From IMG/VR virus record IMGVR_UViG_3300027770_000034: 52,140 nt of DNA, one strand, 5' to 3'. Of the stretch, positions 1-30,239 are shown in pieces (the stretch's first letter is position 1; every line of letters begins with the position of its first letter). The notes beneath the pieces were generated by a model. That model saw only the letters and a program-made list of their open reading frames with translations, did not search any database and had not been told where the DNA came from. This stretch comes from a virus. Lineage: Duplodnaviria; Heunggongvirae; Uroviricota; Caudoviricetes. A program made the position numbers and the translations under genes.

Positions 1-3000
1 ACATCAGGAACTTCAGGTACAGATGGAACTTCAGGAACTAGCGGTACAGATGGAACTTCAGGTACAGACGGAACTTCAGGAACTAGCGGTACAGATGGCA
101 CATCAGGTACTTCAGGTACAGATGGAACTTCAGGAACTAGCGGTACAGATGGAACTTCAGGTACAGACGGAACTTCAGGAACTAGCGGAACAGATGGCAC
201 ATCAGGAACTAGCGGTACAGATGGAACTTCAGGTACAGACGGAACTTCAGGAACTAGCGGTACAGATGGCACATCAGGTACTTCAGGTACAGATGGAACT
301 TCAGGAACTAGCGGTACAGATGGCACATCAGGTACTTCAGGTACAGATGGCACATCAGGTACTTCAGGAACAAGTGGAACAGACGGAACTTCAGGAACTA
401 GCGGAACAGATGGAACTTCAGGAACTAGCGGTACAGACGGAACTTCAGGTACTTCAGGAACAAGTGGAACAGACGGAACTTCAGGAACTAGCGGAACAGA
501 TGGAACTTCAGGAACTAGCGGTTCAGACGGTAGCTCAGGAACTAGCGGAACAGACGGAACTTCAGGTTCTTCAGGAACAAGCGGTACAGACGGTTCATCA
601 GGAACTAGCGGAACAGATGGTTCAAGCGGTACTTCAGGTACGGATGGTTCATCAGGAACAAGCGGAGCAGACGGCTCAAGTGGAACTTCAGGAACAAGTG
701 GTATAAGTGGTGTAAATGGAACAAACGGAACGTCAGGTTCTTCAGGAACATCTGGTTCAAGTGGTTCATCAGGAACTAGCGGTTCAGATGGCTCATCAGG
801 AACAAGTGGAAGTTCAGGTTCTTCAGGAACATCTGGCTCAAGTGGTTCAGATGGCTCATCAGGAACTAGCGGTAGCTCAGGTTCATCGGGAACATCGGGT
901 TCAGACGGTAGCTCAGGAACAAGTGGAACAGACGGAACTTCAGGAACTAGCGGTACAGACGGAACTTCAGGTACTTCAGGAACAAGTGGAACAGACGGAA
1001 CTTCAGGAACTAGCGGTACAGATGGCACATCAGGTACTTCAGGTACAGACGGAACTTCAGGAACTAGCGGTACAGACGGAACTTCAGGTACTTCAGGAAC
1101 AAGTGGAACAGACGGAACTTCAGGAACTAGCGGTACAGATGGCACATCAGGAACTTCAGGTACAGACGGTTCTTCAGGAACTAGTGGAACAGACGGGACT
1201 TCAGGTTCAAGCGGTTCATCAGGAACTAGTGGAACAGACGGGACTTCAGGTTCAAGCGGTTCATCAGGAACTAGTGGAACAGATGGTTCTTCAGGAACCT
1301 CAGGTACGGATGGAACATCAGGAACATCTGCATTAATTTGTACACCATTCTTAGCTGGTGATTATTATTTTCAGGCGGTAAATACAACTTATAATGGGCC
1401 ATCGTATTCAAATATGTCATGGGGTCCTGGACAAACATTAAGTGTATATGCACCTGATGATGTTATTGAATATATCTTTATTAGTGGTTATACCGCTTCA
1501 ACGGGTACGTTAATTGCGGGTATTACATATTCTTCAAATCCTGGTTATAAAACACAAGCGGGTGTTACACTTTGTCTTGCGGGTGAGCAAGGTACTAATG
1601 GAACTTCAGGTACAAGTGGAACAGATGGTTCATCAGGAACTAGCGGAACAGATGGTTCTTCAGGAACTAGTGGAACAGATGGTTCTTCAGGAACTTCAGG
1701 TTCAAGTGGTTCTTCAGGAACTAGTGGTACAGACGGAACTTCAGGTTCAAGTGGTTCTTCAGGAACTAGCGGAACAGATGGTTCATCAGGAACTAGTGGT
1801 ACTTCAGGCACAGATGGTTCATCAGGAACTAGTGGTACTTCAGGTACAGACGGTTCTTCAGGAACTAGTGGAACAGATGGTTCTTCAGGAACTTCAGGTA
1901 CAGATGGTTCATCAGGAACAAGCGGTACAGACGGTAGCTCAGGAACAAGTGGTTCTTCAGGAACTTCAGGTACAGATGGTTCATCAGGAACTTCAGGTAG
2001 CTCAGGAACAGATGGTTCATCAGGAACAAGTGGTAGCTCAGGAACAGATGGTTCATCAGGAACAAGTGGTAGCTCAGGTACAGATGGTTCATCAGGAACT
2101 TCAGGTAGCTCAGGAACAGATGGTTCATCAGGAACAAGTGGTAGCTCAGGTACAGATGGTTCATCAGGAACTTCAGGAAGCTCAGGTTCATCAGGAACAA
2201 GCGGTTCAGATGGTTCTTCAGGAACTAGTGGAAGCTCAGGTTCATCAGGAACTAGTGGAAGCTCAGGTTCTTCAGGAACAAGTGGTAGCTCAGGCTCATC
2301 AGGAACATCGGGTTCAGACGGTAGCTCAGGAACTTCAGGAAGCTCAGGTTCATCAGGAACAAGCGGTTCAAGCGGTTCATCAGGAACAAGTGGTTCAGAT
2401 GGTTCTTCAGGTACTTCAGGAAGCTCAGGTTCTTCAGGAACTAGCGGTTCATCAGGAACTAGCGGTAGCTCAGGTTCAAGTGGTTCAGATGGCTCTTCAG
2501 GAACTTCAGGTAGCTCAGGTTCTTCAGGAACATCAGGCTCAAGTGGTTCATCAGGAACTAGCGGTAGCTCAGGTTCAAGTGGAACATCTGGCTCAAGTGG
2601 TTCAGATGGCTCTTCAGGAACTTCAGGAAGCTCAGGTAGCTCAGGTTCTTCAGGAACTTCAGGAAGCTCAGGTTCATCAGGAACAAGCGGTTCAGATGGT
2701 TCTTCAGGAACTAGTGGAAGCTCAGGTTCATCAGGAACAAGTGGAAGCTCAGGTTCTTCAGGAACAAGTGGTAGCTCAGGCTCATCAGGAACATCGGGTT
2801 CAGACGGTAGCTCAGGAACAAGTGGCTCAAGCGGTTCTTCAGGAACTAGCGGTTCATCAGGAACTAGCGGTAGCTCAGGTTCAAGTGGAACATCTGGCTC
2901 AAGTGGTTCAGATGGCTCTTCAGGAACTTCAGGTAGCTCAGGTTCTTCAGGAACTAGCGGTTCATCAGGAACTAGCGGTAGCTCAGGTTCAAGTGGAACA

Positions 3001-4509: not shown

Positions 4510-4523
4510 TATTTATAGAGTAA
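4510..4523 (+). promoter_or_regulatory. Putative phage late-promoter motif TATTTATAGAGTAA
   Basis: An identical 14-mer lies at 22123-22136. Both copies are upstream of large putative structural genes. Confidence 0.55.
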
Positions 4524-4571: not shown

Positions 4572-7500
4572 ATGGCAAACGAATTTGTAGCCCGTAACGG
4601 TATAAAAGTTTTGGTGGTCCCAAGTGGAAGTTCATCAAATCAAGTCGTGGTATGGAACGCGACAACGAATCAATTAGAAAGAAGAACTGATGCTGGTACC
4701 TCAGGTTCTTCAGGAACAAGTGGGTCATCAGGTTCTTCAGGAACGTCTGGTTCAAGTGGTACGTCAGGTTCTTCAGGAACATCGGGTAGTTCAGGTTCTT
4801 CTGGAACATCAGGTTCAAGTGGTTCATCAGGAACATCAGGTTCAAGTGGTTCATCAGGAACGTCAGGTTCATCAGGAACAAGTGGTTCATCAGGAACAGC
4901 TGGCTCATCAGGTTCTTCAGGAACGTCAGGTTCAAGTGGTTCATCAGGAACAAGCGGTAGTTCAGGTTCATCGGGAACATCTGGTTCAAGTGGTACATCA
5001 GGTTCATCAGGAACAAGTGGTTCATCAGGAACAAGTGGTTCATCAGGAACAAGTGGTAGCTCAGGCTCATCAGGAACATCAGGTTCAAGTGGTTCATCAG
5101 GAACGTCTGGCTCAAGTGGTTCTTCAGGTACAAGTGGTTCATCAGGAACTGCTGGTTCTTCAGGAACCTCAGGTTCAAGTGGTTCATCAGGTTCTTCAGG
5201 TTCATCAGGAACATCAGGTTCAAGTGGTTCATCAGGTTCTTCAGGTTCAAGTGGTACATCAGGTTCTTCAGGAACCTCTGGTTCAAGCGGAACAAGTGGT
5301 AGCTCAGGTTCTTCAGGAACTTCAGGTAGCTCAGGTTCATCAGGAACAAGTGGTAGTTCAGGTTCTTCAGGAACATCTGGTTCAAGTGGTACGTCAGGTT
5401 CTTCAGGAACATCAGGTAGCTCAGGTTCATCAGGTAGTTCAGGTTCATCAGGAACTTCAGGTAGCTCAGGTTCATCAGGAACAAGTGGCTCTTCGGGAAC
5501 AAGTGGCTCAAGTGGGACTTCAGGTTCATCAGGAACATCAGGTTCAAGCGGTTCATCAGGAACAAGTGGTAGCTCAGGTTCATCAGGAACGTCTGGCTCA
5601 TCAGGTTCATCAGGAACGTCTGGTTCAAGTGGAACATCTGGTTCTTCAGGAACAGCTGGTTCTTCAGGTTCTTCAGGTAGCTCAGGTTCTTCGGGAACAT
5701 CAGGTTCTTCTGGTTCTTCAGGAACAAGTGGTTCAAGTGGTTCTTCAGGAACATCTGGTTCAAGTGGTTCTTCAGGAACATCTGGTTCAAGTGGTACGTC
5801 AGGTTCAAGCGGAACAAGCGGTAGTTCAGGTTCATCGGGAACATCAGGTAGTTCAGGTTCATCAGGAACAAGCGGTTCAAGTGGAACCTCTGGTTCTTCA
5901 GGAACAGCTGGCTCATCAGGTTCATCAGGTAGCTCAGGTTCTTCAGGAACTTCAGGTAGCTCAGGTTCATCAGGTAGTTCAGGTTCTTCAGGAACTAGTG
6001 GTTCAAGTGGAACAGCTGGTTCATCAGGTAGTTCAGGTTCTTCAGGTAGTTCAGGTTCTTCAGGTAGTTCAGGTTCTTCAGGTAGTTCAGGTTCTTCAGG
6101 AACAAGTGGTTCAAGTGGAACATCAGGTTCTTCAGGAACAGCTGGTTCATCTGGCTCATCAGGAACAAGTGGTAGCTCAGGTTCTTCAGGAACAAGTGGT
6201 AGCTCAGGTTCTTCAGGAACAAGTGGTTCAAGTGGAACAGCTGGTTCTTCAGGAACGGCAGGTTCAAGTGGTTCATCAGGAACGTCTGGTTCATCAGGTT
6301 CTTCAGGAACGTCTGGTTCATCAGGTTCTTCAGGAACATCTGGTTCAAGTGGTTCAAGTGGAACATCAGGTTCTTCAGGAACAGCTGGTTCATCTGGCTC
6401 ATCAGGAACAAGTGGTAGCTCAGGTTCTTCAGGAACAAGTGGTAGCTCAGGTTCTTCAGGAACAAGTGGTTCAAGTGGAACATCTGGTTCATCAGGAACG
6501 GCTGGCTCATCAGGTAGTTCAGGTTCATCAGGAACAAGTGGAAGCTCGGGTTCTTCGGGAACTTCAGGTGTATCAGGAGCGTCAGGGACATCAGGTTCAT
6601 CAGGAACGTCTGGTTCATCAGGAACGTCTGGTTCATCAGGAACAGCTGGCTCGTCTGGTTCATCAGGAACTTCAGGTTCAAGTGGTTCATCAGGTTCAAG
6701 TGGTTCATCAGGAACTTCAGGTATAAATGGTTCATCGGGAACATCAGGTTCTTCAGGAACAGCTGGCTCATCAGGTTCATCAGGTAGCTCAGGTTCTTCT
6801 GGTTCTTCAGGAACAAGTGGTAGTTCAGGTTCATCAGGAAGTTCAGGTTCATCAGGAACAAGTGGCTCAAGTGGTTCTTCAGGTAGCTCAGGTTCTTCAG
6901 GTAGTTCAGGTAGCTCAGGTTCTTCAGGAAAGTCAGGTTCATCAGGAACGTCTGGTTCAAGTGGAACATCTGGTTCATCAGGAACATCTGGTTCTTCGGG
7001 AACTGCTGGTTCATCAGGTTCATCAGGAACTTCAGGAAGCTCAGGTTCATCAGGAACTTCAGGTAGTTCAGGTTCATCTGGAACTTCAGGTATAAATGGT
7101 TCATCGGGAACATCAGGTTCTTCAGGAACAGCTGGCTCATCAGGTTCATCAGGTAGCTCAGGTTCTTCTGGTTCTTCAGGAACAAGTGGTAGCTCGGGTT
7201 CTAGTGGTACTTCAGGTAGTTCTGGTACATCTGGTTCTTCAGGAACAGCTGGCTCATCAGGTTCATCAGGTAGCTCAGGTTCTTCTGGTTCTTCAGGAAC
7301 AAGTGGTAGTTCAGGTTCATCAGGAACGTCTGGTTCAAGTGGTTCTTCAGGAACATCAGGTAGCTCAGGAACATCAGGTAGCTCAGGAACATCAGGTAGC
7401 TCAGGAACATCAGGTTCAAGCGGTTCTAGTGGTAGTTCAGGTTCAAGTGGAACATCAGGTTCAAGTGGAACATCAGGTTCTTCTGGTTCAAGTGGAACAA

Positions 7501-8018
7501 GTGGTAGCTCAGGTTCATCAGGAACTTCAGGAAACTCAGCGGTTGTAAATAACAATACAAATACTTTTGTTGTTACGGCAACAGGAACAGCAGGAACAGT
7601 TCAAGGTAACGCAGGTCTTAGATATGATGGTTCAACATTGAATGTAACAGGGGATACCACAATGACAGGAGCTTTAACCGCAGCATCAAAATCATTTGAC
7701 ATCCCTCACCCAACAAAAGAAGGATTCAGATTAAGATACGGTGTGTTAGAAGGACCAGAACATGGAGTATACGTTAGAGGTATTGCAACATCAAAAGTAA
7801 TAGAATTACCTGATTATTGGACAGGATTAGTTCACGAAAATAGTATAACAATTCAATTGACACCAATAGGTTCAGCAACACTACATTATCTTGTTAAGAT
7901 TGAAGATAATAAAATTTACATAGATTCTGAAACATCAGTTATAAATGTTAGTTTCTTCATACAAGCAGAACGTAAAGATGTTGAAAAAGTATTGATAGAA
8001 TACAAAGAACAAGACTAA
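4572..8018 (+). CDS. Collagen-like (GSS/GTS/GTA) fibre protein with C-terminal S74-like intramolecular chaperone domain
   Basis: 1148 aa: 41-aa N-terminus MANEFVARNG, about 948 aa of Gly-X-Y, a neck motif, then SKSFDIPHP..LRYGVLEGPEHGVYVRG. Confidence 0.85.
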   Translation: MANEFVARNGIKVLVVPSGSSSNQVVVWNATTNQLERRTDAGTSGSSGTSGSSGSSGTSGSSGTSGSSGTSGSSGSSGTSGSSGSSGTSGSSGSSGTSGSSGTSGSSGTAGSSGSSGTSGSSGSSGTSGSSGSSGTSGSSGTSGSSGTSGSSGTSGSSGTSGSSGSSGTSGSSGSSGTSGSSGSSGTSGSSGTAGSSGTSGSSGSSGSSGSSGTSGSSGSSGSSGSSGTSGSSGTSGSSGTSGSSGSSGTSGSSGSSGTSGSSGSSGTSGSSGTSGSSGTSGSSGSSGSSGSSGTSGSSGSSGTSGSSGTSGSSGTSGSSGTSGSSGSSGTSGSSGSSGTSGSSGSSGTSGSSGTSGSSGTAGSSGSSGSSGSSGTSGSSGSSGTSGSSGSSGTSGSSGSSGTSGSSGTSGSSGTSGSSGSSGTSGSSGSSGTSGSSGTSGSSGTAGSSGSSGSSGSSGTSGSSGSSGSSGSSGTSGSSGTAGSSGSSGSSGSSGSSGSSGSSGSSGSSGTSGSSGTSGSSGTAGSSGSSGTSGSSGSSGTSGSSGSSGTSGSSGTAGSSGTAGSSGSSGTSGSSGSSGTSGSSGSSGTSGSSGSSGTSGSSGTAGSSGSSGTSGSSGSSGTSGSSGSSGTSGSSGTSGSSGTAGSSGSSGSSGTSGSSGSSGTSGVSGASGTSGSSGTSGSSGTSGSSGTAGSSGSSGTSGSSGSSGSSGSSGTSGINGSSGTSGSSGTAGSSGSSGSSGSSGSSGTSGSSGSSGSSGSSGTSGSSGSSGSSGSSGSSGSSGSSGKSGSSGTSGSSGTSGSSGTSGSSGTAGSSGSSGTSGSSGSSGTSGSSGSSGTSGINGSSGTSGSSGTAGSSGSSGSSGSSGSSGTSGSSGSSGTSGSSGTSGSSGTAGSSGSSGSSGSSGSSGTSGSSGSSGTSGSSGSSGTSGSSGTSGSSGTSGSSGTSGSSGSSGSSGSSGTSGSSGTSGSSGSSGTSGSSGSSGTSGNSAVVNNNTNTFVVTATGTAGTVQGNAGLRYDGSTLNVTGDTTMTGALTAASKSFDIPHPTKEGFRLRYGVLEGPEHGVYVRGIATSKVIELPDYWTGLVHENSITIQLTPIGSATLHYLVKIEDNKIYIDSETSVINVSFFIQAERKDVEKVLIEYKEQD
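4695..7538 (+). repeat. Coding Gly-X-Y block (about 316 triplets, apparently uninterrupted, no Pro)
   Basis: Gly at every third residue from GTS at 4695 to GNS at 7530-7538. Rare variants are GVS, GAS, GIN and GKS. Confidence 0.9.
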
Positions 8019-8060: not shown

Positions 8061-8639
8061 ATGGCGAACGAATTTATTGTACGAAATGGGTTGAAATCCT
8101 TAGGGGGAATCACATTTCCTGCTACAGGGATTAATGCAACTTATACTGTAGGTGTTAATGATTATTTAATAGATATTACAGGTAATACTATTACAGTAAC
8201 TCTACCGACTGCTGTTGGAGTTAATGGTAAGAACTATGTTATTAAAAATAGAGGTACTGGTGTTGTTACCGTAGCAACAACCTCAAGTCAAACAATTGAT
8301 AGTGCAAATACAAAAAGTTTAAATAATAACGACAGTATTGAAGTTATAAGTGACGGTAGTAATTGGATTATTGCTGCAGGAACAGGAACTGTGACAAGTT
8401 CAACAACAGCTAAATCTGGTGTTGCTTCAAATACAACATTTACAGGTACACCTCTAAATTATCAGGTATTATTTACTTCTGAATTTCCTAACACAAATTA
8501 TTCAGTAACCATAACAGGGGGGGACGCTAGAGTATGGACGGTAGAAAGTGTGACGGTAAATGGATTTATAATTAATTCAAATAGTAATACTGGTCTACTT
8601 TATTCCACTTATTGGATTGCAACACTAAATGTGTCCTAA
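8061..8639 (+). CDS. Putative short tail-fibre/virion protein, two beta-rich domains
   Basis: The N-terminus MANEFIVRNG matches the upstream fibre. Contains TVTLPTA..GKNYVIKN...SDGSNW, a pattern common in phage fibre modules. Confidence 0.65.
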   Translation: MANEFIVRNGLKSLGGITFPATGINATYTVGVNDYLIDITGNTITVTLPTAVGVNGKNYVIKNRGTGVVTVATTSSQTIDSANTKSLNNNDSIEVISDGSNWIIAAGTGTVTSSTTAKSGVASNTTFTGTPLNYQVLFTSEFPNTNYSVTITGGDARVWTVESVTVNGFIINSNSNTGLLYSTYWIATLNVS

Positions 8640-14312: not shown

Positions 14313-14321
14313 TTGTTAAAT

Positions 14322-14362
14322 TATTTATTGAAAATATAAAGGATATGTGTTATAATTTCAAT
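14322..14362. promoter_or_regulatory. Divergent promoter region of the glycan cassette
   Basis: Plus strand: TATTTAT at 14322-14328 and TTGAAA(14328-33)-17 nt-TGn-TATAAT(14351-56). Minus strand: near-match ATTG-20 nt-TATATTTT (14331-14362). Confidence 0.45.
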
Positions 14363-14377
14363 TGAAAACTAAATATT

Positions 14378-15600: not shown

Positions 15601-15601
15601 C

Positions 15602-16504: not shown

Positions 16505-16506
16505 TA

Positions 16507-18387: not shown

Positions 18388-18388
18388 C

Positions 18389-19534: not shown

Positions 19535-19540
19535 AGGACA

Positions 19541-20470
19541 ATGAATAAAGTAGCGTTAATCAGTACTTACTGTGATAATCAGGAAAAATTAGATGTTCTT
19601 GAGAAAAATATTGGCATAGTTAAATCTTATGGTTTAGATGTTATAGTGGTTAGTCCTATTGTTTTACCTGAAAGTATTCAAAAACAATGTGATTACTATT
19701 TCTTAACCAAAGACAATCCTGTGTTAGATTGGCCCAAAAGGGCAATGTACATATGGAGACAACTACCTTTAGGTGATGAGAAAATTGTAATAACAACAAC
19801 ATATCCTGACTACGGATGGGCGGGATTACTTCAAGTTAGACAATTAAGTGATATTGCATTAATGTTAAATTATGATTGTTTTTACCATATGATATATGAT
19901 TTAAAAATTGATGATAATGTAAAACATTATTTTGACAACCCACATGAAAATATAATTTTCCCATCCAAAAGAGGAAATGAGATATGGAAAGTAGGATTAC
20001 ACCTTATGATTTTTGATAGAAAGAATCTAACACAATTTAAGTCGTTAATCTCAGAAGAAAGTTATTTTGCGGTTAAAGGAGACCACGCATTTAAATGGTT
20101 AGAAAGAATTATTGGTACAACAAAATCTGAAATTGCAGAAACGCCTGTAGAAGATGAAATATATTACTACGAAGGTCACGACTTTTTCAATTCATCACCA
20201 GCAGAAGGAGTTAAATTTTTTATAAATAAAAACGATGAGGTTGATGAGACAATAAAACTATTATTTTATTATGTTTCTGAACCAAAAGAGGTAAGGATTA
20301 CTATAAATGATACCTTTTATGATTATGTAATTAATAAAGACTCACTCATTGATTTAGGGTTTGATAAATTTAATATTCCAAAAGTGTTATTTAAATATAT
20401 GGGTGTTGAATATGATATTACCAATACAATTAAAAAAATAAAACATAGTACACTTAACGTAACTAACTAA
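19541..20470 (+). CDS. Hypothetical protein in the glycan cassette, possible GT-A-like fold
   Basis: 309-aa ORF tightly coupled to its neighbours. No decisive motif recognised. Confidence 0.6.
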   Translation: MNKVALISTYCDNQEKLDVLEKNIGIVKSYGLDVIVVSPIVLPESIQKQCDYYFLTKDNPVLDWPKRAMYIWRQLPLGDEKIVITTTYPDYGWAGLLQVRQLSDIALMLNYDCFYHMIYDLKIDDNVKHYFDNPHENIIFPSKRGNEIWKVGLHLMIFDRKNLTQFKSLISEESYFAVKGDHAFKWLERIIGTTKSEIAETPVEDEIYYYEGHDFFNSSPAEGVKFFINKNDEVDETIKLLFYYVSEPKEVRITINDTFYDYVINKDSLIDLGFDKFNIPKVLFKYMGVEYDITNTIKKIKHSTLNVTN

Positions 20471-21018
20471 TGATTGAGAATATACATTTATGGCATGCTG
20501 ATAGAGGAAGTTATTTTGATAGAAACGTCAACATAATTTCTTGGAGTAATGATTACCATATACACGTTGGGAAATACTGTTCTATCGGAAGAGATTGTAA
20601 TTTCTTTTTACATGCAAACCATAGACCTGATTGGATAACAACATCCTCCCAACTGTGGGGACCTGTTACACCTGAAATTGCATCATTACACATGGAGATG
20701 GGTCATCCATCTTGTAAAGGTGATATTATAGTTGGTAGTGATGTTTGGATTGGTGCCAAGTCAACAATAATGTCTGGTATTAAAATCGGACACGGAGCAA
20801 TTGTTGCTGCGGGTGCATTAGTAACCAAAGACGTTGAACCATTTTCCGTTGTTGGTGGTAATCCTGCAAAACATTTAAAGTACAGATTTGAAGAACAACA
20901 AATTAAAGACCTCTTAGATATTGCTTGGTGGGATTGGGAAGAAAGTAAGATTAAAGAAGAAGCGATGACATTATGGAGTCAAGACATAAATTATTTTATA
21001 GAAAAACATAAGAAATGA
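20470..21018 (+). CDS. CatB/Vat-like hexapeptide O-acetyltransferase
   Basis: VGKYCSIG, NHRPDWITT, KGDIIVGSDVWIG, GAIVAAGALVTKDVEPFSVVGGNPAKHLKYRF. Confidence 0.85.
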   Translation: MIENIHLWHADRGSYFDRNVNIISWSNDYHIHVGKYCSIGRDCNFFLHANHRPDWITTSSQLWGPVTPEIASLHMEMGHPSCKGDIIVGSDVWIGAKSTIMSGIKIGHGAIVAAGALVTKDVEPFSVVGGNPAKHLKYRFEEQQIKDLLDIAWWDWEESKIKEEAMTLWSQDINYFIEKHKK

Positions 21019-21860
21019 TAACAGTAACATATAATTCAGACGGTATTAAAGTTAGTGTTGGACACATTAGCAAATACAACAAAAATTTACCATTAAAGTT
21101 AAACATTAGAAAGCATGTTAGTGGAGATGTACAATGGTCATCAAACTTAAATGATAATTGGTTTGCTACATATCCTAATACAGAAATGTTTGATGTTGAA
21201 ATTCTTGATTCAAGAGGAGTAATTGTGTATACCAAAAAATGGGACATCATGGAGCACGGAAACCATTTCTATAAGTCTTTATGGGCCTATAATAAATCAT
21301 TATTATCTAATGGAAAATTCCCAACAGGGTTAGTTATCGGAACACATGATGGTGAGTTTGGAGAGTGGGTACCAATAGTTCAAAATAGAGAATGTAAGGT
21401 TGTTTTAGTTGAAGCTTCAGACAAACAATTTAATAAGTTAAAACAAAATTATACTAAAAACTCACTCGTTAAACCAATTCAAAATTTAATAACACCAAAT
21501 GGTGGAGAGGTTGAATTTTTTGAGGGAGGTGAGGGATATACAAATACCATAGTTGAAAGTGTTATTAAACATTGGGAAAAAGAAGAAATTCACTCAACTA
21601 AAAAAAGCTCTATTAGTATTACCGATTTGATTCTATCAGAATGTGGTGGGCAAATTGATTGGTTACACCTTGATGTTGAAGGGTTAGATGCTCAATTAAT
21701 TATGGGGATTGATGAAACTAAAGTTTCATTACCCAATTTTATTATTTTTGAAGATTATAATTTATCTCAAGATAAAAAAGATGAGATTTATAACTGGTTA
21801 AAGAACAAAGGCTTTGAGCTCAAATCTGAGGGTGGAATTTGTGAGGCAATAAAAAATTAA
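21015..21860 (+). CDS. FkbM-family methyltransferase with N-terminal beta-rich extension
   Basis: VIGTHDG, VVLVEAS..FNKLKQNY, IDWLHLDVEGLD, IIFE. Confidence 0.75.
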   Translation: MITVTYNSDGIKVSVGHISKYNKNLPLKLNIRKHVSGDVQWSSNLNDNWFATYPNTEMFDVEILDSRGVIVYTKKWDIMEHGNHFYKSLWAYNKSLLSNGKFPTGLVIGTHDGEFGEWVPIVQNRECKVVLVEASDKQFNKLKQNYTKNSLVKPIQNLITPNGGEVEFFEGGEGYTNTIVESVIKHWEKEEIHSTKKSSISITDLILSECGGQIDWLHLDVEGLDAQLIMGIDETKVSLPNFIIFEDYNLSQDKKDEIYNWLKNKGFELKSEGGICEAIKN

Positions 21861-22146: not shown

Positions 22147-25100
22147 ATGGCTGCAAATATTTTCATAAGTAATAGTTCACTAGACATTGTCATAAACGAT
22201 GTATACTTCAATGGAGTCCAAGCGACTTATGCTGGAGGAGTTCCTCTACCAAACCAAACAGGTGATGGAACTAATTTAGAAACAACACAAGTTGGAACTT
22301 ATACTTTAGATGTTTACTATTCTGTAGGTGTTCCAGGACAAAATATAACAATCACAGACAGTGATGGAACATTCCAATGTTACTTCTTCGGTTCGTCAGG
22401 AGTTGCCTCATTTATAAATGTGAATTATGATGGTTTTACTCCAATATACATATATGGTTATGACGGAGCTTGTTCTCCTCCACCAACACCAACCGAAACA
22501 TCTGTGACTCCAACACCAACACCAACAATCCCTTGTATTGATTGTCAAGATTACTATAATAATTCAGGGCCGTTGACTGGTTTCTATTATTATGATTGTA
22601 ATGGGGTTTATCATGCTAATGAATCTTTAGATTACGGTGGTAGTATTTGTGTCAGTGGAGGATTGACTGGACCTGTAGGATTCTTAACTTTAATAGGTAC
22701 TTGTGGTACTTACTGCCCTGGTGACATTACAACCCCTACGCCAACGCCAGATTCAACACCACCATCAACGCCAGATTCAACACCACCTGTTACACCAACA
22801 CCAACACCAATATGTTCTGTTGTTTCATTCAACGGTTTTTCAGGACTATCATTGAACGATGCTTGTGCTCAACTATATCCAATAACAATTTACTATTGTG
22901 GGTCTTTAGGTGTGGGTACTGATTTATATGCCGACGCATCATTAATAAATCCTGTTAATACACCAGGATATTATAATGACCCGAATAACTTACAAGTTTA
23001 TCATGTTGGACTGCCAAGTGTTCAAGATGGAAGAGTCACTGACATTCAATACTGTTTACTACCAACTCCAACTCAAACACAAACACCTACTGAAACTACT
23101 CCGTGTAGTTGTACATATTATGATGTTATTGTTACTAATAATGATATAGATAGTGCTACGGGTAACACTACAACAAATTGGAATAATACCGTTTGGGCGT
23201 GGTATTATGATTGTAATACGGGTTTTTCTTTAGATATGATTTTTTATTCTGCTGACCCTTATTATAATACTTTATGTAATAATAATATTATCGGGGTGCC
23301 ATATTTGTATTATCATATAAATGATGTACCAACAGCTTTAGGAATAACGTCTACAATAACTAATAATTTAACTTGTTGTACTGTTGACCCAACTCCAACT
23401 AATACCCAAACACCAAGTGAAACTCCAACACAAACACCTACAAATACAGAAACACCAACCCAAACTCCAACACCAATATGTTCTGTTGTTTCCTTCAATG
23501 GTTTCTCAGGATTATCACTTAACGATGCTTGTGCTCAATTATATCCATTAACAATTTATTATTGTGGTTCTTTGGGTGTGGGTACTGATTTATACGCCGA
23601 CGCATCATTAATAAATCCTGTTAATACGCCAGGATATTATAATGACCCGAATAACTTACAAGTTTATCATGTTGGACTGCCAAGTGTTCAAGATGGAAGA
23701 GTTACCGACATTCAATATTGTACTCTACCAACACCTTCTCCAACACAGACACCTTCAGAAACTCCAACTCAAACTCCAACATTAAGTCCTGGCGCAAGTC
23801 CATATCCAACTACAACACCTACGCCAACACCAAGTGAAACACCAAGTGAAACACCGCCAGTAACACCAAGTGAAACACCGCCAGTAACTCCAAGTGAAAC
23901 ACCGCCAGTAACACCAAGTGAAACACCGCCAGTAACACCAAGTGAAACACCGCCAGTAACACCAAGTGAAACACCAAGTGAAACACCAACACCAACTCAG
24001 ACACCAACTCCAAGTATAACAGCATCACAAACTCAGACACCTACGCCAGACCCGACGCCAACTATAACACCAACATCAAGTATAACTGCGTCGCAAACTC
24101 AGACACCAACACCAAGTATAACTGCGTCACAAACTCAGACACCAACACCAAGTATAACTGCGTCACCAACACCAACACCAGGATTTGCGGTTCAATTTGT
24201 AGATTGTTCTAATAGTGAGAATATTTTCAGATTTAATGACCCAGCAATTCCCTCAACGATTGGAGTAACTTATTACATTACAGGAAGTACATCATTTGAT
24301 GGATGTGCAACTACGGTTGTTAATGATGGTTCAGGTCCTCAATATAATGGAGCAGGAGTTTCATTCTTAATGACAGGTGCAGGATGTGGTGACCCAATTT
24401 GTCCAAGGTCAAGTAATAAAGCCGCGTTATTAACAAGATGTTCCGATGGAGAAGTATTTTATTTCAATGTTGAGGAAGACACAGCATTTGTAGGCGCAGC
24501 ATATGTTTATGATGGTGTATGTTATGGGTTTGTTGAATTTTCAGGTCCAGGTGGAGATAACATTGGTTCACCATTATACCAGAATTGTTTTGATTGTTTG
24601 GCACAACCAACTCCAACTCCAACACCTTATCCAACACCTACAAATACGCCGACTGTTTCATCTACACCACCAGCATGTATCTATACATCATTTTGTTTAA
24701 GTTCAACACTTTCAAGCGTAATTAACTACAACGGAAATTATGACGAAACTGGATTTTATAATGGTAAACCATATTATGTGGGTGATGGTGCGACAACAGG
24801 TTACATTTATTATGTAACAGGTTCAACAGAGTATTGGTGTTTATCAAGTAGTCTTGGAGGTACTTGTATTTTACAAGGAGCTTCTCCTTGTTATTCACAA
24901 TGTCCTGATATATTGGCCAATGGGTTTACAGGTGGAATTTGTCCTACACCAACACCAACACCAATTAACTGTAATACATTTAATTTTAATGCTTATTTTG
25001 ATTGTGATTGGGAACCATTACCAACACCTACACCAAGTGTTGCTTGTGACGATGTCAATTTTGATATAGGTTCTATCGGAGTTACTCCGACACCATCTCC

Positions 25101-26391
25101 AACAGGAATTATTTGTGATGGAAAGGCGGTTACCTTTTCAATGAGTGGATATACACCAGCAGTTACGCCAACAATACCATTAACACCTACAGTAACAATA
25201 ACAAGAACTGTGGATGTTGCAGGTCAAGCAACTTTCAATATGTTAGATGAAACATTTAGTTGTGTTTCTGTTAAGGTTCTTACAAACTGCAACACAGGCA
25301 TGGAACTTTATACTTCAAGTAATTTATCATACAATGGAATAACTGTAGTTACAGGAATGACATTCTTTGCTTTAATTAATAATGAGAATGTTTGTGTGAC
25401 ATATACAAGAAATGATACTAATTTCTCTTCAAACTCTATTGTTAATCAAATATTCCAAATTTACTCAAATTGTGCAAACTGTTCAAATGTGCCAACACCG
25501 ACACCATCAGTGACAACAACACCTACTCAAACACCATCGGCAACTGCAGGACTTACGCCAACGGCAACCGCAACTCCACCAGTAACACCAACCCAAACAT
25601 TAACACAAACACCAACTCCTTCACCAACATCAACACTTGGAAGTACTCCAACTGAAACACCAAGTAATACTCCAACTGAAACGCCACCAGTAACACCAAC
25701 TCAAACACAAACAGCATCAAACACACCAACACCTTCAATAACAAAATCACCAACACCAACTCCTGTTTGGGTTTATGTTTATCAAAGTTGTCAACAAATA
25801 CAATTTGGTAAGTTCACATCATTTGCTCAGGTAATTCAAACTCAACAAGTGTCATTCACAGTTATTGTTGGAGAATCCTTTAAAGATGACCAAGGAAATT
25901 GTTGGGTTTATAATGGAAGATTTGAAGTAGATTATATTGCACCACCTACAATGACACCAATAACATTCCAAGGAAACTATTTTGCAAATGCTCCATCAAC
26001 AGTTTATACTTCTTGTGATGATTGTTTAACACCTGTTACTCCCCCTCAACAAACAGTGACTGGAGCTGGTGGATATATGCAACCTTGTCTTGGAGGAACG
26101 ATTGATGACTATATGGGGGCATCTGTAATTTTAGATACACCTGTAACTGTTGATACAACAGTTGAAATTATTGTTTATTATCAATACCGTAATAGTTACA
26201 TATCATGTAGTAGTAAATTATCAAACAATAATTCAACTTCATTCGGTGTGTTTATTCCTGCGGGAGAATCTTATGGAGCGGTTGATGCATGTACACAAGG
26301 TCAATACTTCTCAACAGGGGCTAATATATGTGGAGCATGTATTATTGGTTCGGACAATCCGAATATAAACTTTGGAACATACGGATGTTAA
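22147..26391 (+). CDS. Large Thr-Pro-linker, Cys-rich multidomain putative virion protein (1414 aa)
   Basis: Many small Cys/Tyr/Gly-rich domains separated by TPTPT linkers, with an internal domain duplication. Confidence 0.75.
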   Translation: MAANIFISNSSLDIVINDVYFNGVQATYAGGVPLPNQTGDGTNLETTQVGTYTLDVYYSVGVPGQNITITDSDGTFQCYFFGSSGVASFINVNYDGFTPIYIYGYDGACSPPPTPTETSVTPTPTPTIPCIDCQDYYNNSGPLTGFYYYDCNGVYHANESLDYGGSICVSGGLTGPVGFLTLIGTCGTYCPGDITTPTPTPDSTPPSTPDSTPPVTPTPTPICSVVSFNGFSGLSLNDACAQLYPITIYYCGSLGVGTDLYADASLINPVNTPGYYNDPNNLQVYHVGLPSVQDGRVTDIQYCLLPTPTQTQTPTETTPCSCTYYDVIVTNNDIDSATGNTTTNWNNTVWAWYYDCNTGFSLDMIFYSADPYYNTLCNNNIIGVPYLYYHINDVPTALGITSTITNNLTCCTVDPTPTNTQTPSETPTQTPTNTETPTQTPTPICSVVSFNGFSGLSLNDACAQLYPLTIYYCGSLGVGTDLYADASLINPVNTPGYYNDPNNLQVYHVGLPSVQDGRVTDIQYCTLPTPSPTQTPSETPTQTPTLSPGASPYPTTTPTPTPSETPSETPPVTPSETPPVTPSETPPVTPSETPPVTPSETPPVTPSETPSETPTPTQTPTPSITASQTQTPTPDPTPTITPTSSITASQTQTPTPSITASQTQTPTPSITASPTPTPGFAVQFVDCSNSENIFRFNDPAIPSTIGVTYYITGSTSFDGCATTVVNDGSGPQYNGAGVSFLMTGAGCGDPICPRSSNKAALLTRCSDGEVFYFNVEEDTAFVGAAYVYDGVCYGFVEFSGPGGDNIGSPLYQNCFDCLAQPTPTPTPYPTPTNTPTVSSTPPACIYTSFCLSSTLSSVINYNGNYDETGFYNGKPYYVGDGATTGYIYYVTGSTEYWCLSSSLGGTCILQGASPCYSQCPDILANGFTGGICPTPTPTPINCNTFNFNAYFDCDWEPLPTPTPSVACDDVNFDIGSIGVTPTPSPTGIICDGKAVTFSMSGYTPAVTPTIPLTPTVTITRTVDVAGQATFNMLDETFSCVSVKVLTNCNTGMELYTSSNLSYNGITVVTGMTFFALINNENVCVTYTRNDTNFSSNSIVNQIFQIYSNCANCSNVPTPTPSVTTTPTQTPSATAGLTPTATATPPVTPTQTLTQTPTPSPTSTLGSTPTETPSNTPTETPPVTPTQTQTASNTPTPSITKSPTPTPVWVYVYQSCQQIQFGKFTSFAQVIQTQQVSFTVIVGESFKDDQGNCWVYNGRFEVDYIAPPTMTPITFQGNYFANAPSTVYTSCDDCLTPVTPPQQTVTGAGGYMQPCLGGTIDDYMGASVILDTPVTVDTTVEIIVYYQYRNSYISCSSKLSNNNSTSFGVFIPAGESYGAVDACTQGQYFSTGANICGACIIGSDNPNINFGTYGC
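22801..23721 (+). repeat. Near-identical 255-bp direct repeat (22801-23055 and 23467-23721)
   Basis: Both copies encode PTPICSVVSFNGFSGLSLNDACAQLYP(I/L)TIYYCGSLG...RVTDIQYC, offset by 666 nt. Confidence 0.9.
23839..23958 (+). repeat. Five tandem 24-bp units (TPSETPPV)
   Basis: ACACCAAGTGAAACACCGCCAGTA five times, with one synonymous variant. Confidence 0.9.
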
Positions 26392-26405
26392 ATATTTAAA
26401 TAATA

Positions 26406-26624
26406 ATGGCAGTTCAAGTAACAATATCTAATGTAACAGGACAAACACCTTATGATGTGTATGTTTGTCAAACAAATGGTTCGTCTTGTTTCTATATAAC
26501 AACAACAAGCTCAATACCATATGTTTTTGACATACCAGCACCTTATAACAATTTATCTGCTTACATGTTAAAGTTGATTGATGGTAATAATTGCATAATC
26601 TCTGGAACAACAACAGTATCGTGA
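26406..26624 (+). CDS. Small Cys-containing beta-rich putative virion protein (72 aa)
   Basis: Paralogous to the N-terminal domain of the next gene. Confidence 0.7.
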   Translation: MAVQVTISNVTGQTPYDVYVCQTNGSSCFYITTTSSIPYVFDIPAPYNNLSAYMLKLIDGNNCIISGTTTVS

Positions 26625-27268
26625 GTCAACAAGTAACCATAAAATCAGTAACCGCAAATACACCAGTAGATGTTTACTACTGTAATTCATTTAGTGCAAG
26701 TTGTGTATATGTCGCAACAGTATCAACATTTCCTTATGTTTTTGACGTTCCACCGCCATATGATGAAACGAATATTGTTATAAAAATTGTAGATGTTAAT
26801 GGATGTATTGATGGAGACATTGTTTATATAACGCCAACACCAACACCATCATTTACACCGACACCAACATTGACTCCAACACAAACTGCCAGTCAAACAC
26901 CGACGTTTTCACAAACACCAACGCAAACACAAACACAAACCGCAACACAAACTTGTACACCTACATTTACACCATCACCATCTCTAACACCAGCAATCGC
27001 AAAACATGCAATTGGACAAAACAGATATAATACTTCGGGAAGTACTTGTAATGACACAATCACTTTAGAAAATTATTACACTTTTATTAGTGAAGCAAAT
27101 TCAGTTCCAGTTGTTGGAGTTACAGTTTACGAAACTGCGGTAGGTATTATTTTGTATAACGTATACAATGGTCAAAATAAATGGATTAAAATGGGTTTTG
27201 GGTCCGATTATTATGCGGTTCTAATAAACACGGCGGGCAAAATTAGTAATTTTGTAATTTGTTCTTGA
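26621..27268 (+). CDS. Putative virion protein: beta domain, Thr-Pro linker, beta domain
   Basis: The GTG start overlaps the upstream TGA (GTGA). VSQQVTIKSVTANTPVDVYYC..C.Y..T..PYVFDVPPPY matches 26406. Confidence 0.7.
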   Translation: MSQQVTIKSVTANTPVDVYYCNSFSASCVYVATVSTFPYVFDVPPPYDETNIVIKIVDVNGCIDGDIVYITPTPTPSFTPTPTLTPTQTASQTPTFSQTPTQTQTQTATQTCTPTFTPSPSLTPAIAKHAIGQNRYNTSGSTCNDTITLENYYTFISEANSVPVVGVTVYETAVGIILYNVYNGQNKWIKMGFGSDYYAVLINTAGKISNFVICS

Positions 27269-27329: not shown

Positions 27330-30239
27330 ATGGCATATAACTGTTCAGACTGTAATTCCCTATATACTTGGACTCCTTACGACGACAATTCTTGTTTTAG
27401 GGAAATAGTTACGAATGCGACACCACCGTCATCACCGTTACCCGCGGTTAGAATTAAATATTTGTTATATTCACAATATGGTGCGGTATTTTATAAACCA
27501 GGATTTTCTGTTTGCGGAACGGGTTCAACTTATGGAATTGTAACAACTCCAAATATTTGGGCAAATCCAACCACAGTAACTAACCAAGGTCCTTTAAACA
27601 GAACTGGAATATGGGATACTACAGCATTAAATGCGACACCAATTAACACTTGGTTAGGATTTTCACAATGTTTAACTGGATTTATATCAACAAAAACATA
27701 TTATGTTGGTATCGCTGCAGATAATGAATTCAGACTTGTATTGGACGGTGTTCAAATTTTAAATACTAAAGTACCACCAGCAACTTATTCTTTATCTTTA
27801 AGTGCGTTTACATATTGGCATGTTTATCCTGTTGAAATTGGAGCAGGTAATCATACATTAGAATTATACGGACTGAATGCTCCAGGAGGTAGTACAAACC
27901 CTGCTGGTTTTGGATGTGAGATTTATGATAACACATTATCTCAATTAACTGGTGCAACTTCATTATCGGATTTAAATGTTATTTTTAGTACTAGTGGTGT
28001 TACATCGTTCACGTTAGCACAAGACCTTTCAGGAAATTATATATCATCAGGATATACATGTCCTTCAGGGTATGTTTATTCTACTTGTAGTGGTAATTGT
28101 GTTAGTTATCAATATTGTATTGCTCCAACACCAACTCAAACTGCTTCAAATACGCCAACAGTAACTCCAACAAATACTGTAACACCAACAAATACAGCGA
28201 CACCTACGGTTACACCAACTAATACTGCAACACCGACATTCACACCAACTAATACTAAAACTCCAACACCAACTCCATCTACAACTACTATTGTTTATGG
28301 TAGCGGTAGAACAACAGGTACTTATTATTATACAAATAGCTGCGGTGATTTAATTCAAGGTAATTCAGTTGGTGAGATAGTTAATTTAAACTATTTTTTA
28401 CCATTTTTTGGTATTGAAAAATTATATGTTGCGGTAATACCTAATTGTATTACACCTACTCCAACACAAACACAAACATATACACCAACAAATACAATAA
28501 CGCCAAGCATAACTGCATCGCCAACTTATACTCCAACAATAACACCATCAACAACGGTAACACCATCAAAAAGTGGTGTATTTAGACTAAAAAATAACTG
28601 TGATGTTTTCACATTATTTGATTTAGGGGTAAGTTGTAATGTGATTGCTTATCCATCTTCATCAACATCAAATGATGGAATTTTATCTTTAAATGTGACT
28701 GGAGGGACTAGTCCTTATTCTTTTTATTGGGCAAATGGACAAAGAACACAAACTTTAGCACAAGTAGGTGCTGGAATATATGAGTGTACGGTTATTGATT
28801 ATTATGGTGATTATTCATCTACAACAGTATGTTCATTATTAGCTCCAACAGCAACGCCAACACCTTCTGTTACTACAACACCAACGGTAACTCCATCGGG
28901 TACTTGTCCAAAACTATGTTTCATTGCAATAGGTACTTCAACAGCTTATGGCCCATGGCAATTTACATGTAATGGAATGTTTAACGGAAAAACTACATGG
29001 AATTATAATAGCTATAATATTGTATGGACAGGTGTTAGATGGGAAATTGTCGGTTCTGATATGACAACACCATTTGTTGCGGTTAATGGAGGTATATTTG
29101 CAAGTAATTCAACATCATCTATACCATCAAATGGTTGGGCTTCTGTTGGAGGTACTTATGCGTTTAGTGTGACTATGACTGAAGGAAATTGTCCTGCAAC
29201 AATACCAATCCAAACAAAAGTTACTTTTGAAAATAGTACATGTGACGGAATTAAAAATTGTGACGGAACAATAACCATATCTGCATCATACGGAACGCCA
29301 CCATATCAATATTCAATTAATAACGGTTTAACATATCAAAGTAATGGTTTGTTCTTTGGATTATGTCCAAACACATATACAATTATTACGAGAGATTCTT
29401 TAAATAATAGTGTAAACAATAGTGTTACGGTTGGTTATAATCAGGCACTCACAACTTACCAATTATCAGTTAAACAATTAGCAAATGCAACAGTAACTGT
29501 TTCTGGACCAAATTTTAATACGACAACAACCTATTTAGAAATCATAACGAATCCACCATTACCTACAGGAGTCACTCTTGAATTTGATTTAAACTTCACT
29601 TCAATAAAGACAACCAACGGACCAGGATTTGGAACAATTAATGATAACATTTCAGTATCTCAAAACGAAAATTTAATCTCACCAACAACTCAACAATCAC
29701 CAGTCACTCAAATAAATTCAAGACCTAATTGCAGTCCTGAAACTCAAGAAGTTAAGACAGAAACCGAAAGTTATAGTTGTGTATTGAGTAAAACTTCAAC
29801 TGTTACTTTTATCACTCAGTCAGCGTTGGAAATTACAAACGGACAAATTGCAACAAACAGTTGTGTAACTAATTTGACTCAAACAATATATGCGGGAATT
29901 TCTTCTCAAGTAATTAAGGGATGTACTTGTTGTAATGTTGTTGCGGATACAAATTTATTACCAACAGTAAGTAATGATGTCAGTTATCAAAGTAATGCTA
30001 CTCCAATATCAACATCTTATTTTACGGCAGATATCTATGATAGTAATTGTCTTAATATTGGAAGCACAATAGTAGGTGTAAATTCTTCAGAGGTAATTGT
30101 CGGTTATTATTATCCTGTTAGTGGTTTATCTGGACCTGTTATACAAATAACTGGTTTGACAAATGAATTTCCAACTTATTTTGTAACAATAAATTCAATA
30201 GGATATTTTAGTTGTGGTGAAATACAATCACAAACATAA
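27330..30239 (+). CDS. Putative virion adhesin: PA14-like domain, Thr-Pro linkers, two SprB-like repeats
   Basis: YYVGIAADNEFRLVLDG..GNHTLELYG; DGILSLNVTGGTSPYSFYWANG..GAGIYECTVID; DGTITISASYGTPPYQYSINNG..LCPNTYTIITRD. Confidence 0.75.
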   Translation: MAYNCSDCNSLYTWTPYDDNSCFREIVTNATPPSSPLPAVRIKYLLYSQYGAVFYKPGFSVCGTGSTYGIVTTPNIWANPTTVTNQGPLNRTGIWDTTALNATPINTWLGFSQCLTGFISTKTYYVGIAADNEFRLVLDGVQILNTKVPPATYSLSLSAFTYWHVYPVEIGAGNHTLELYGLNAPGGSTNPAGFGCEIYDNTLSQLTGATSLSDLNVIFSTSGVTSFTLAQDLSGNYISSGYTCPSGYVYSTCSGNCVSYQYCIAPTPTQTASNTPTVTPTNTVTPTNTATPTVTPTNTATPTFTPTNTKTPTPTPSTTTIVYGSGRTTGTYYYTNSCGDLIQGNSVGEIVNLNYFLPFFGIEKLYVAVIPNCITPTPTQTQTYTPTNTITPSITASPTYTPTITPSTTVTPSKSGVFRLKNNCDVFTLFDLGVSCNVIAYPSSSTSNDGILSLNVTGGTSPYSFYWANGQRTQTLAQVGAGIYECTVIDYYGDYSSTTVCSLLAPTATPTPSVTTTPTVTPSGTCPKLCFIAIGTSTAYGPWQFTCNGMFNGKTTWNYNSYNIVWTGVRWEIVGSDMTTPFVAVNGGIFASNSTSSIPSNGWASVGGTYAFSVTMTEGNCPATIPIQTKVTFENSTCDGIKNCDGTITISASYGTPPYQYSINNGLTYQSNGLFFGLCPNTYTIITRDSLNNSVNNSVTVGYNQALTTYQLSVKQLANATVTVSGPNFNTTTTYLEIITNPPLPTGVTLEFDLNFTSIKTTNGPGFGTINDNISVSQNENLISPTTQQSPVTQINSRPNCSPETQEVKTETESYSCVLSKTSTVTFITQSALEITNGQIATNSCVTNLTQTIYAGISSQVIKGCTCCNVVADTNLLPTVSNDVSYQSNATPISTSYFTADIYDSNCLNIGSTIVGVNSSEVIVGYYYPVSGLSGPVIQITGLTNEFPTYFVTINSIGYFSCGEIQSQT

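Follow-up and report, generated by a model that had tools for sequence, protein, structure and literature searches.

A phage-borne GT4–BAHT glycosyltransferase fusion genetically coupled to Ser/Thr-rich collagen-like genes, and its possible role in fibre glycosylation

The subject of this analysis is a 52,140-nucleotide stretch of DNA from a member of the Caudoviricetes (IMG/VR record IMGVR_UViG_3300027770_000034, the whole of which stretch we call the window), and within it a gene at 12030..14312 on the minus strand whose product is a fused glycosyltransferase: a GT4 domain at about residues 100-390 is followed, at residues 410-757, by a domain of the TibC/Aah type, or BAHT. We found enzymes of this kind in phages in the company of genes for collagen-like proteins whose Gly-X-Y triplets are filled with Ser and Thr. 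Since the TibC family is Ser-specific, the Y position of those triplets is filled with Ser, and the two kinds of gene are associated in genomes, fibre glycosylation is the best reading of these data; judging from the sequences, we consider it reasonably probable that the fusion glycosylates the phage's own G-[S/T]-S collagen-like fibres. The family membership of the enzyme, the conservation of its catalytic residues, and its genomic coupling to the collagen-like genes are, at the level of sequence comparison, established. A preceding sequence-only reading of this DNA had pointed to two collagen-like genes, four Thr/Pro-rich proteins, and a 9.8-kb cassette of sugar enzymes, all of which features were confirmed at their positions.

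The fusion enzyme and its distribution

The assignment of the 12030..14312 product to the BAHT family, which that reading had proposed, held good: the protein scored 225.7 bits against TIGR04414, the Aah/TibC equivalog model (cut-off 200), over residues 425-757, and matched the crystal structure of TibC (PDB 4rap) with E = 2e-43 across TibC residues 26-379. In TibC, Asp110 is the catalytic base, Thr226 and Lys230 contact the beta-phosphate, Trp305 contacts the heptose, and Cys339/342/358/370 form an iron finger (PMC4358343); the corresponding residues in the window enzyme are Asp492, Thr612, Lys616, Trp680, and Cys714/717/733/745. According to the alignment, the catalytic and donor-contact residues are kept in 111-112 of 112 phage homologues, while the four iron-finger cysteines are invariant in all 112. 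The N-terminal beta-barrel region may likewise be represented, the alignment reaching TibC residues 26-97 (PF21129, TibC_1st, 21.9 bits, cut-off 27); the region of the TibC beta-hairpin thumb, for its part, is shortened beside two alignment gaps, and TibC Pro300 is Ser or Gly in the phage enzymes. TibC modifies Ser and not Thr, and the BAHT family is known to act only on proteins (PMC4358343).

A search of IMG/VR with an enzyme-domain profile gave 241 contigs, of which the best 80 loci, together with eight others, made up 46 clusters at 90% identity that we used for a forward test of gene neighbourhood. In nearly all these loci the enzyme was a GT4–BAHT fusion of ~760-795 amino acids (aa), which architecture was retained where the BAHT domain was only 30-44% identical and was often accompanied by extra FkbM, class-I methyltransferase, GT25, or second GT9 domains. 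A phmmer search against 1.84 billion representatives returned 552 clusters (50% identity) at E <= 1e-30; the best 150 matches all reached at least 211 bits, versus 151.7 bits for TibC against the full 760-aa protein, and about four-fifths of those 150 were multidomain proteins of 500-2000 aa. When 185,579 species genomes were scanned with phage-type search patterns, the enzyme appeared in only three short contigs of metagenome-assembled genomes (MAGs), none with a collagen neighbour, and a sample of 400 other genomes from the phylum to which the enzyme-bearing Sediminibacterium MAG belongs gave no match. This near-absence from bacterial genomes indicates that the enzyme is essentially phage-borne.

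One relative comes from a cultured phage. Mel-JY01, a Microcystis phage (PP395634.1), encodes a GT4-x-BAHT protein 44% identical to the window enzyme over 98% of the query, and the gene lies 1.7 kb downstream of an unannotated collagen-like open reading frame (ORF; L001:2-3049, plus strand) of 1016 codons, with 25% G, 24% S, and 16% T and a run of 149 triplets. That ORF is oriented as the downstream 'structural protein' and GT4-x-BAHT genes are, and two Pro-rich minus-strand 'hypothetical proteins' of the record (1-651 and 739-2298) look like its shadow frames.

Collagen-like genes and their association with the enzyme

The first collagen-like gene of the window (1..4422, plus strand, open at the window start) has two triplet blocks around a ~65-aa globular insert and ends in a ~140-aa non-collagen domain; its 417 Gly-X-Y triplets are of the G-[T/S]-[S/D] type, with a longest unbroken run of 270. 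The second (4572..8018, plus strand, 1148 aa) consists of an N-terminal MANEF..RNG.K motif, a triplet tract, and a C-terminal domain of predicted beta-sandwich fold, and has 316 triplets of the G-[S/T]-S type, all in one unbroken run. Ser or Thr occupies X in at least 98% of the triplets of both genes, and Ser occupies Y in 83% (first gene) and 95% (second gene). Pro is rare, with 7 and 6 residues in the respective whole proteins, and charged residues are few; the triple helix of collagen-like proteins is normally aided by Pro or by charge pairs. The predominance of Ser at Y was found in four other phage lineages as well. The sequence-only reading had supposed well over a thousand Ser/Thr sites per fibre chain, which figure was too high, as we counted 644 Ser plus Thr in the second protein and at least 819 in the first, which is cut by the window start. 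The DNA repeats beneath the triplets are degenerate (mutual match 59-80%), so that it is selection, and not recent copy expansion, that keeps the strict Gly period. The plus frame must be the coding one because it continues into non-repeat C-terminal domains with homologues, whereas the open frames elsewhere stay within the repeat. Short end pieces of the two ORFs scored 24.1 and 22.7 bits against the Pfam Collagen model PF01391 (cut-off 27.2).

The collagen-like proteins are likely to be virion fibres, as suggested by a tail-fibre-like fold modelled for the C-terminal domain and by weak tail-fibre PHROG matches at the C-terminal end of ORF 1..4422. The C-terminal domain of the second protein matches phrog_17490 (E about 1e-39 to 4e-39) and is common to a 209-aa short fibre-like protein (11399..12028, plus strand). 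The AlphaFold model of this shared domain was confident at residues 125-205, and its closest match by VIA-align was the distal domain of the receptor-binding region of the cyanophage Pam1 tailspike, with Z 8.3 and a root-mean-square deviation of 1.8 over 65 aa, a Z near 8 being the noise limit of the tool; many tail-fibre and tailspike tips followed at Z 5-6.6, and no PDB entry reached E <= 0.001 when the model was searched with Foldseek.

For the forward test we counted as collagen-like any ORF with a triplet run of at least 25 lying within 10 kb of the enzyme. Such an ORF was present in 17/46 clusters and was Ser/Thr-rich (S/T-rich) in 12 of those 17; in two clusters merely 4 bp separated the end of the fibre ORF from the enzyme ORF. 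For the reverse test, viral contigs were sampled on one criterion alone, a DNA pattern encoding sixteen Gly-[S/T]-[S/T] triplets in succession, and a control set by a sixteen-triplet pattern demanding two Gly-Pro triplets. The enzyme was present in 25/72 of the S/T-tract contigs (all at E <= 3e-27) versus 0/71 of the Pro-containing ones (Fisher p = 5e-9, or 8e-8 upon inclusion of one contig common to both sets), which statistics ignore kinship among the contigs and compare sets with median sizes of 41 kb (S/T) and 20 kb (control); the difference was significant both below and above 40 kb. Thus the co-occurrence of BAHT with Gly-Ser/Thr collagen-like genes, a test of which the sequence-only reading had suggested, was borne out, and the adjacency recurs in many lineages. 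In the reverse sample at least 15 of the 25 enzyme contigs had a collagen ORF within 10 kb, the gap being 25-86 bp in three, and the 26 enzymes recovered stayed apart as 26 clusters when grouped at 70% identity and as 14 when grouped at 50%, which numbers indicate that the association does not come from one over-sampled lineage. Overall, the enzyme gene often stands 4-90 bp from the fibre gene, across lineages 30-60% identical, and of the nine contigs that reach 100 kb and carry both features, six have the two within 10 kb of each other, against about one expected. In the complete syntenic relative of the window in IMG/VR (G001, IMGVR_UViG_3300032242_003291; 317,259 bp, CheckV 100%), the only two S/T-rich collagen ORFs flank the cassette, and three Pro-containing ones lie 50 kb away.

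Many IMG/VR contigs start inside the GT4–BAHT gene or a few bases upstream of it (L007, L008, L020, L041, L043, L044, L051, L052, L054, L058, L060, L061, L064, and others), and in one cluster all the contigs start within the collagen repeat. Contigs that stop at the enzyme gene are to be expected when a repeat next door breaks the assembly, and the adjacency of fibre and enzyme is therefore probably under-counted in metagenomes.

A first alternative is that there exists no enzyme–substrate relation and no functional glycan, the G-S-S tracts being flexible spacers or ordinary triple helices and the co-occurrence reflecting a shared ancestry of large aquatic phages. A Gly/Ser-rich sequence is indeed the classic flexible linker, and the S/T contig set is not only larger in contig size, as given above with kinship ignored, but also more aquatic than the control. 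Nevertheless, we regard this possibility as quite improbable, because the Gly period stays intact over 316 triplets despite 20-40% DNA divergence between repeats, the adjacency of 4-90 bp recurs in differing orientations and gene orders with enzymes less than 50% identical, the catalytic and iron-finger residues are invariant among the 112 homologues, and the two genes keep their proximity within genomes, as the 6/9 count indicates.

According to a second alternative, the cassette would remodel the host surface (lipopolysaccharide (LPS), capsule, or an autotransporter or gliding adhesin) during infection, so as to block superinfection or the sticking of progeny to lysed cells, and would stand beside the fibres only through a shared variable island of host recognition. 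Glycan and LPS-type genes, rfaE included, in the host-recognition cluster of pelagimyophages have been interpreted in this manner (PMC7029224); furthermore, the acetyl- and methyltransferases of the cassette resemble polysaccharide-decorating enzymes, and some enzyme loci are without a nearby collagen gene. We nonetheless hold this explanation to be improbable, since BAHT enzymes are known to glycosylate proteins and not lipids (PMC4358343), and since the enzyme follows the S/T-only and not the Pro-containing collagen genes (25/72 versus 0/71), though both are fibre genes; the same distinction is seen within G001, whose Pro-containing collagen genes are the ones 50 kb from the cassette. Moreover, we saw in the cassette no membrane-associated functions of the Wzx/Wzy/WaaL type or undecaprenyl-linked ones, and none of the neighbouring ORFs scanned matched an autotransporter family, the recurrent neighbour being the collagen-like S/T-rich ORF.

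Fibre glycosylation, too, has points that weigh against it. The substrates known for BAHT enzymes are not triple helices but beta-helices that present a strand-loop-strand acceptor, and the N-terminal GT4 fusion may clash with the dodecamer ring of TibC. With respect to the donor, TibC Arg286, which residue reads the adenine (N1) of ADP-heptose (PMC4358343), is Val in the window enzyme and V, T, I, or S in most phage homologues, R occurring in 8/112; in addition, GmhA (SIS_2, PF13580) was not found in five related phage records, so that no phage ADP-heptose pathway came to light and a small cytidylyltransferase-like ORF, well away from the cassette, was all that the records offered. Given the loss of Arg286 and the failure to find GmhA, the donor may not be ADP-heptose, and heptose as the transferred sugar is unsupported; the 'cytidylyltransferase-like' neighbour in Mel-JY01, considered as an ADP-heptose pathway gene, gave a marginal Pfam match only and was set aside. 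About 12 well-flanked enzyme loci, among them those of the two closest relatives of the window enzyme (L002 and L006), have no collagen-like ORF within 10 kb, and some of the neighbouring collagen genes are rich in Pro, Ala, or Gln and not in Ser and Thr. The contigs are related and come mostly from large aquatic phages; part of the association could accordingly be a matter of lineage and not of function. Finally, the truncated DegT-like protein of the cassette, described below, may on its sequence be no aminotransferase, and the support for fibre glycosylation is genomic throughout, the glycan being a prediction.

The sugar-enzyme cassette and its surroundings

The cassette comprises nine genes over 9.8 kb (12030..21860), the eight besides the fusion being on the plus strand. 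A miniature DegT-like protein of 214 aa (14378..15022), with the pyridoxal-phosphate (PLP) Lys K123 and the D-S-A motif kept, is followed by a sugar N-acetyltransferase of the NeuD/PglD/VioB type (15019..15600) that has PglD_N plus hexapeptide repeats (TIGR03570, NeuD/PglB/VioB, 143.4 bits versus a cut-off of 160.8; PglD_N 28 versus 23.4; Hexapep 49.4 versus 27). Then come a 315-aa protein without family (15557..16504), with a weak lead to GT-B-type glycosyltransferases, and a 626-aa protein (16507..18387) that begins with DUF6625 and whose C-terminal 400 aa belong to no family. The last four are a two-domain methyltransferase (18389..19534; a class-I S-adenosylmethionine-dependent methyltransferase plus a CmcI/rhamnosyl O-methyltransferase-like domain), a 309-aa protein without family (19541..20470; a weak lead to GT-A-type glycosyltransferases of viruses), a hexapeptide-repeat O-acetyltransferase of the Vat/CatB-like kind (20470..21018), and an FkbM-family methyltransferase (21015..21860). 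For the two ORFs without family, atlas feature searches pointed only weakly to GT-A and GT-B enzymes (scores 0.84-0.90), and we did not count these ORFs as glycosyltransferases.

The aminotransferase claimed by the sequence-only reading calls for correction. The protein is DegT-like (Pfam PF01041, 51.8 bits versus a cut-off of 19.8, over residues 9-85 only), with GDP-perosamine synthetase as the closest solved relative, and the Schiff-base Lys and the preceding D-S-A motif are invariant in 12 relatives. Against this stands its size: the full DegT fold takes ~360-390 aa, whereas this 214-aa miniature is without ~39 internal residues and the entire C-terminal domain, and its AlphaFold2 model was poor (pLDDT 53). 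It is nevertheless the best-conserved protein of the cassette, at 69-97% identity versus 33-90% for the BAHT domain at the same loci, and it retains long invariant blocks despite the lack of a third of the canonical fold. At 83.7-88.5 kb of G001 (L092:3705-8488) there is, furthermore, a GDP-mannose 4,6-dehydratase (416.7 bits versus an equivalog cut-off of 415); the same GDP-sugar cluster, which adjoins PhoH and is far from the fibre cassette, also contains a GDP-fucose-synthase-like reductase and two more short-chain dehydrogenase/reductase enzymes. The dehydratase, taken with the likeness of the DegT protein to GDP-perosamine synthetase, makes a branch from GDP-4-keto-6-deoxymannose to an (N-acetyl)perosamine-like sugar a reasonable guess.

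BAHT enzymes act in the cytoplasm with nucleotide sugars, which compartment is the one where phage fibres fold. In the scheme that we infer as to substrate, order of steps, identity of the sugars, and place of the fibres on the virion, the GT4–BAHT protein would be a cytoplasmic protein O-glycosyltransferase that modifies fibres 1-4422 and 4572-8018 ahead of virion assembly or in its course. The BAHT domain would place the first sugar on Ser, probably on the nearly invariant Ser at Y, and the fused GT4 domain would then attach a second. The miniature DegT, the PglD-like acetyltransferase, the three methyltransferase domains, the O-acetyltransferase, and up to three further candidate glycosyltransferases would supply or decorate sugars, one possible product being an N-acetyl-perosamine-like GDP-sugar for which the phage GDP-mannose dehydratase would furnish the precursor. 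The scheme would end in a trimeric fibre that is densely glycosylated, for which the BclA nap of Bacillus spores offers a parallel. The roles proposed earlier for such a coat, namely stability, adhesion, protease resistance, and mimicry, are speculation.

A stronger version of this scheme, which we judge unlikely, would make the Pro-free G-[S/T]-S collagens a triple-helix class of their own, dependent for folding and rigidity on dense O-glycosylation of Ser at Y, with the GT4–BAHT enzymes as obligatory and possibly processive maturation machines. Glycosylated Thr stabilises the hydroxyproline-free cuticle collagen of a vent worm, by analogy with which protein the phage glycan may be needed for helix stability; this possibility fits the finding that the contigs with Pro-containing collagens lack the enzyme.

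The four Thr/Pro-rich proteins, all on the plus strand and with 16-26% T and 7-12% P, are better described as Cys-containing globular modules connected by Thr-Pro (TP) linkers. The first (8657..11365, 902 aa) has a 22-aa repeat of the TQTPTPSITASQ type and a Cys-containing module with a faint likeness to PA14; the second (22147..26391, 1414 aa, 56 Cys) consists of many small Cys-rich modules; the third (26591..27268) has 225 aa; and the N-terminal module of the fourth (27330..30239, 969 aa) is homologous to the Cys-containing module of the first. TP linkers are O-glycosylated in some bacteria, and a third alternative would accordingly have the enzymes act on these proteins, on capsid or tail-tube proteins, or on phage DNA, and leave the collagen-like fibres bare. 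A faint feature likeness of one family-less ORF to T4 DNA glucosyltransferase clusters (score 0.84) and a thymidylate-synthase-family gene in G001 can be cited for DNA, and the glycosyltransferases that mycobacteriophages carry beside structural genes do modify the C-termini of capsid and tail-tube proteins (Freeman et al. 2023, as cited in PMC12619734). Yet TP-linker ORFs stood near the enzyme in only 9/114 loci, so that nothing links the Thr/Pro proteins to it, and their glycosylation, as the sequence-only reading had it, is a guess that the survey did not support; the thymidylate-synthase gene of G001, a strong match to ordinary ThyA, is remote from the cassette; BAHT enzymes are not known to act on nucleic acids; and the link to Ser-filled collagen tracts, together with the Ser specificity of the family, points to the fibres. 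We therefore find this alternative rather improbable.

Next to the fibre genes, a 192-aa protein (8061..8639, plus strand; phrog_37034) that shares the N-terminal MANEF motif with the second fibre protein is, from its sequence, probably a short fibre or adaptor. Similar N-terminal motifs, MANEF[IV].RNG[IL]K or MANINVF..NNIK, occur at 4572-4680 and 8061-8130 and, in weaker form, at 11399-11470, and to judge from their likeness would probably be a shared anchor that fits different fibres into one virion socket.

A word (A/T)TATTTATA occurs on the plus strand at 4510-4517, 11387-11394, 22123-22130, and 50518-50525, 12-62 nt upstream of the ORF starts 4572, 11399, 22147, and 50538; two of the copies are lengthened to TTATTTATAGAGTAA, and near-copies of TATTTATA at 14322 and 30264 precede the ORFs 14378 and 30277. 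From its positions the word could be a candidate late or structural-gene promoter of this phage group, which assignment would put the cassette into the same regulon. The T4 late-promoter word TATAAATA was not enriched (8 found versus 5 expected). Sites of the form TTTG-N19-TAnnTTTG, for their part, number 4 in the window versus 0.75 expected, and 3 of the 4 (40489-40519, 44099-44129 on the minus strand, and 44162-44192) stand just upstream of the ORFs 40548, 43180..44088 (minus strand), and 44210; these three fit Bacteroidota-type sigma-A promoters of non-structural genes. Of the three MAG bins with related enzyme contigs, two are Bacteroidota, and a host in that phylum is, on such sequence indications, plausible.

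The window is a section of the genome of a large uncultured lake phage, with RuvC-like, primase, exonuclease, SbcCD-like, homing-endonuclease, and sigma-factor genes in its right half, as assigned by PHROG matches. It corresponds to ~271.8-317.2 kb of G001, reversed and continuing over the contig end, with proteins 50-94% identical (84% for the second fibre gene); at the GT4–BAHT enzyme the nearest IMG/VR relative is 91% identical, and a megablast of 22 kb of the window against GenBank phages gave no match. At 40548-44088, in the interval that separates the SbcC-like gene from the conserved block after it, three nuclease-type genes follow one another, namely a homing-endonuclease-like ORF, an HNH endonuclease of 411 aa (phrog_559, E = 1e-112), and, on the minus strand, an endonuclease VII-like ORF; these genes are missing or poorly matched at the equivalent place in G001, as would be expected of selfish insertions.

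Comparison with known glycosylation systems

To our knowledge, BAHT enzymes had been described solely from a few Proteobacteria, where they modify autotransporter adhesins and are associated with virulence; BAHT now becomes a large and diverse phage clade with a genetic link to a single, peculiar class of substrate. Should the fibres be glycosylated, the system would be a second and mechanistically different case of phage virion glycosylation, would explain the existence of Pro-free Ser/Thr collagens, and would bear on host binding, protease resistance, and grazer recognition of abundant lake phages; an enzyme able to attach hundreds of sugars to a simple repeat in the cytoplasm would also be attractive for glyco-engineering. 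Were the glycan obligatory for fibre maturation, the largest branch of the 'autotransporter' heptosyltransferase family would be a phage fibre-maturation system, and the virions of abundant freshwater phages would bear half-micrometre glycan-sheathed fibres.

The closest known systems are the TibC–TibA and Aah–AIDA-I pairs of E. coli (PDB 4RAP/4RB4; PMC4358343), which share with the phage enzyme a homologous catalytic domain with the Asp, the Thr/Lys pair, the Trp, and the Cys4 iron finger, and possibly the N-terminal beta-barrel region; Ser hyper-glycosylation, here predicted, of a long repetitive protein in the cytoplasm; and an enzyme gene that adjoins that of the presumed substrate. The phage enzyme differs in being phage-encoded, in standing behind a GT4 domain and sometimes together with methyltransferase or further glycosyltransferase domains, in the lack of the adenine-reading Arg286, and in the lack of an ADP-heptose pathway among the genes found in phage relatives, while its presumed substrate is a Pro-free collagen-like tract and not a beta-helical autotransporter.

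On the side of the substrate, BclA of the exosporium nap of Bacillus anthracis is a trimeric collagen-like protein with a globular C-terminal head, whose Thr triplets are densely O-glycosylated and whose anthrose is made through the antABCD operon (PMC10050317). The two systems have in common a collagen-like fibre and dedicated sugar-tailoring genes, the BclA oligosaccharide ending in a methylated, acylated amino-dideoxy sugar; the BclA triplets, however, are mostly Gly-Pro-Thr and those of the phage Gly-Ser/Thr-Ser without Pro, BclA resides on a bacterial spore surface, the phage glycan is predicted only, and the BclA glycosyltransferases have no demonstrated homology with the phage enzymes.

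Among viruses, glycosylation of mycobacteriophage virions (Freeman et al. 2023, in PMC12619734) resembles the present case in that phage glycosyltransferases encoded near structural genes modify the virion's own proteins in the host cytoplasm; there, however, it is short C-terminal tails of the capsid and tail-tube subunits that are modified, by enzymes other than BAHT, and the modification is experimentally proven, that of the collagen-like fibres being a prediction. The giant-virus fibrils of Mimivirus (PMC4691112) also depend on an autonomous virus-encoded pathway for amino-dideoxy, acetylated, and methylated sugars, which includes an aminotransferase and an acetyltransferase, with viral transferases decorating surface fibrils, but Mimivirus is a eukaryotic virus whose fibril proteins and transferases are unrelated, and its collagen is modified on hydroxylysine. 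In the T4-like pelagimyophages (PMC7029224), sugar-nucleotide and glycosyltransferase genes of aquatic phages similarly lie among tail-fibre genes, which arrangement was interpreted as serving host LPS modification, with no BAHT or collagen link described. Our literature search found no paper on phage BAHT or on glycosylated phage collagen-like fibres; thus, of the parts assembled here, the BAHT enzymes, the glycosylated collagen-like fibres, and virion glycosylation are each known, and it is their combination that is new.

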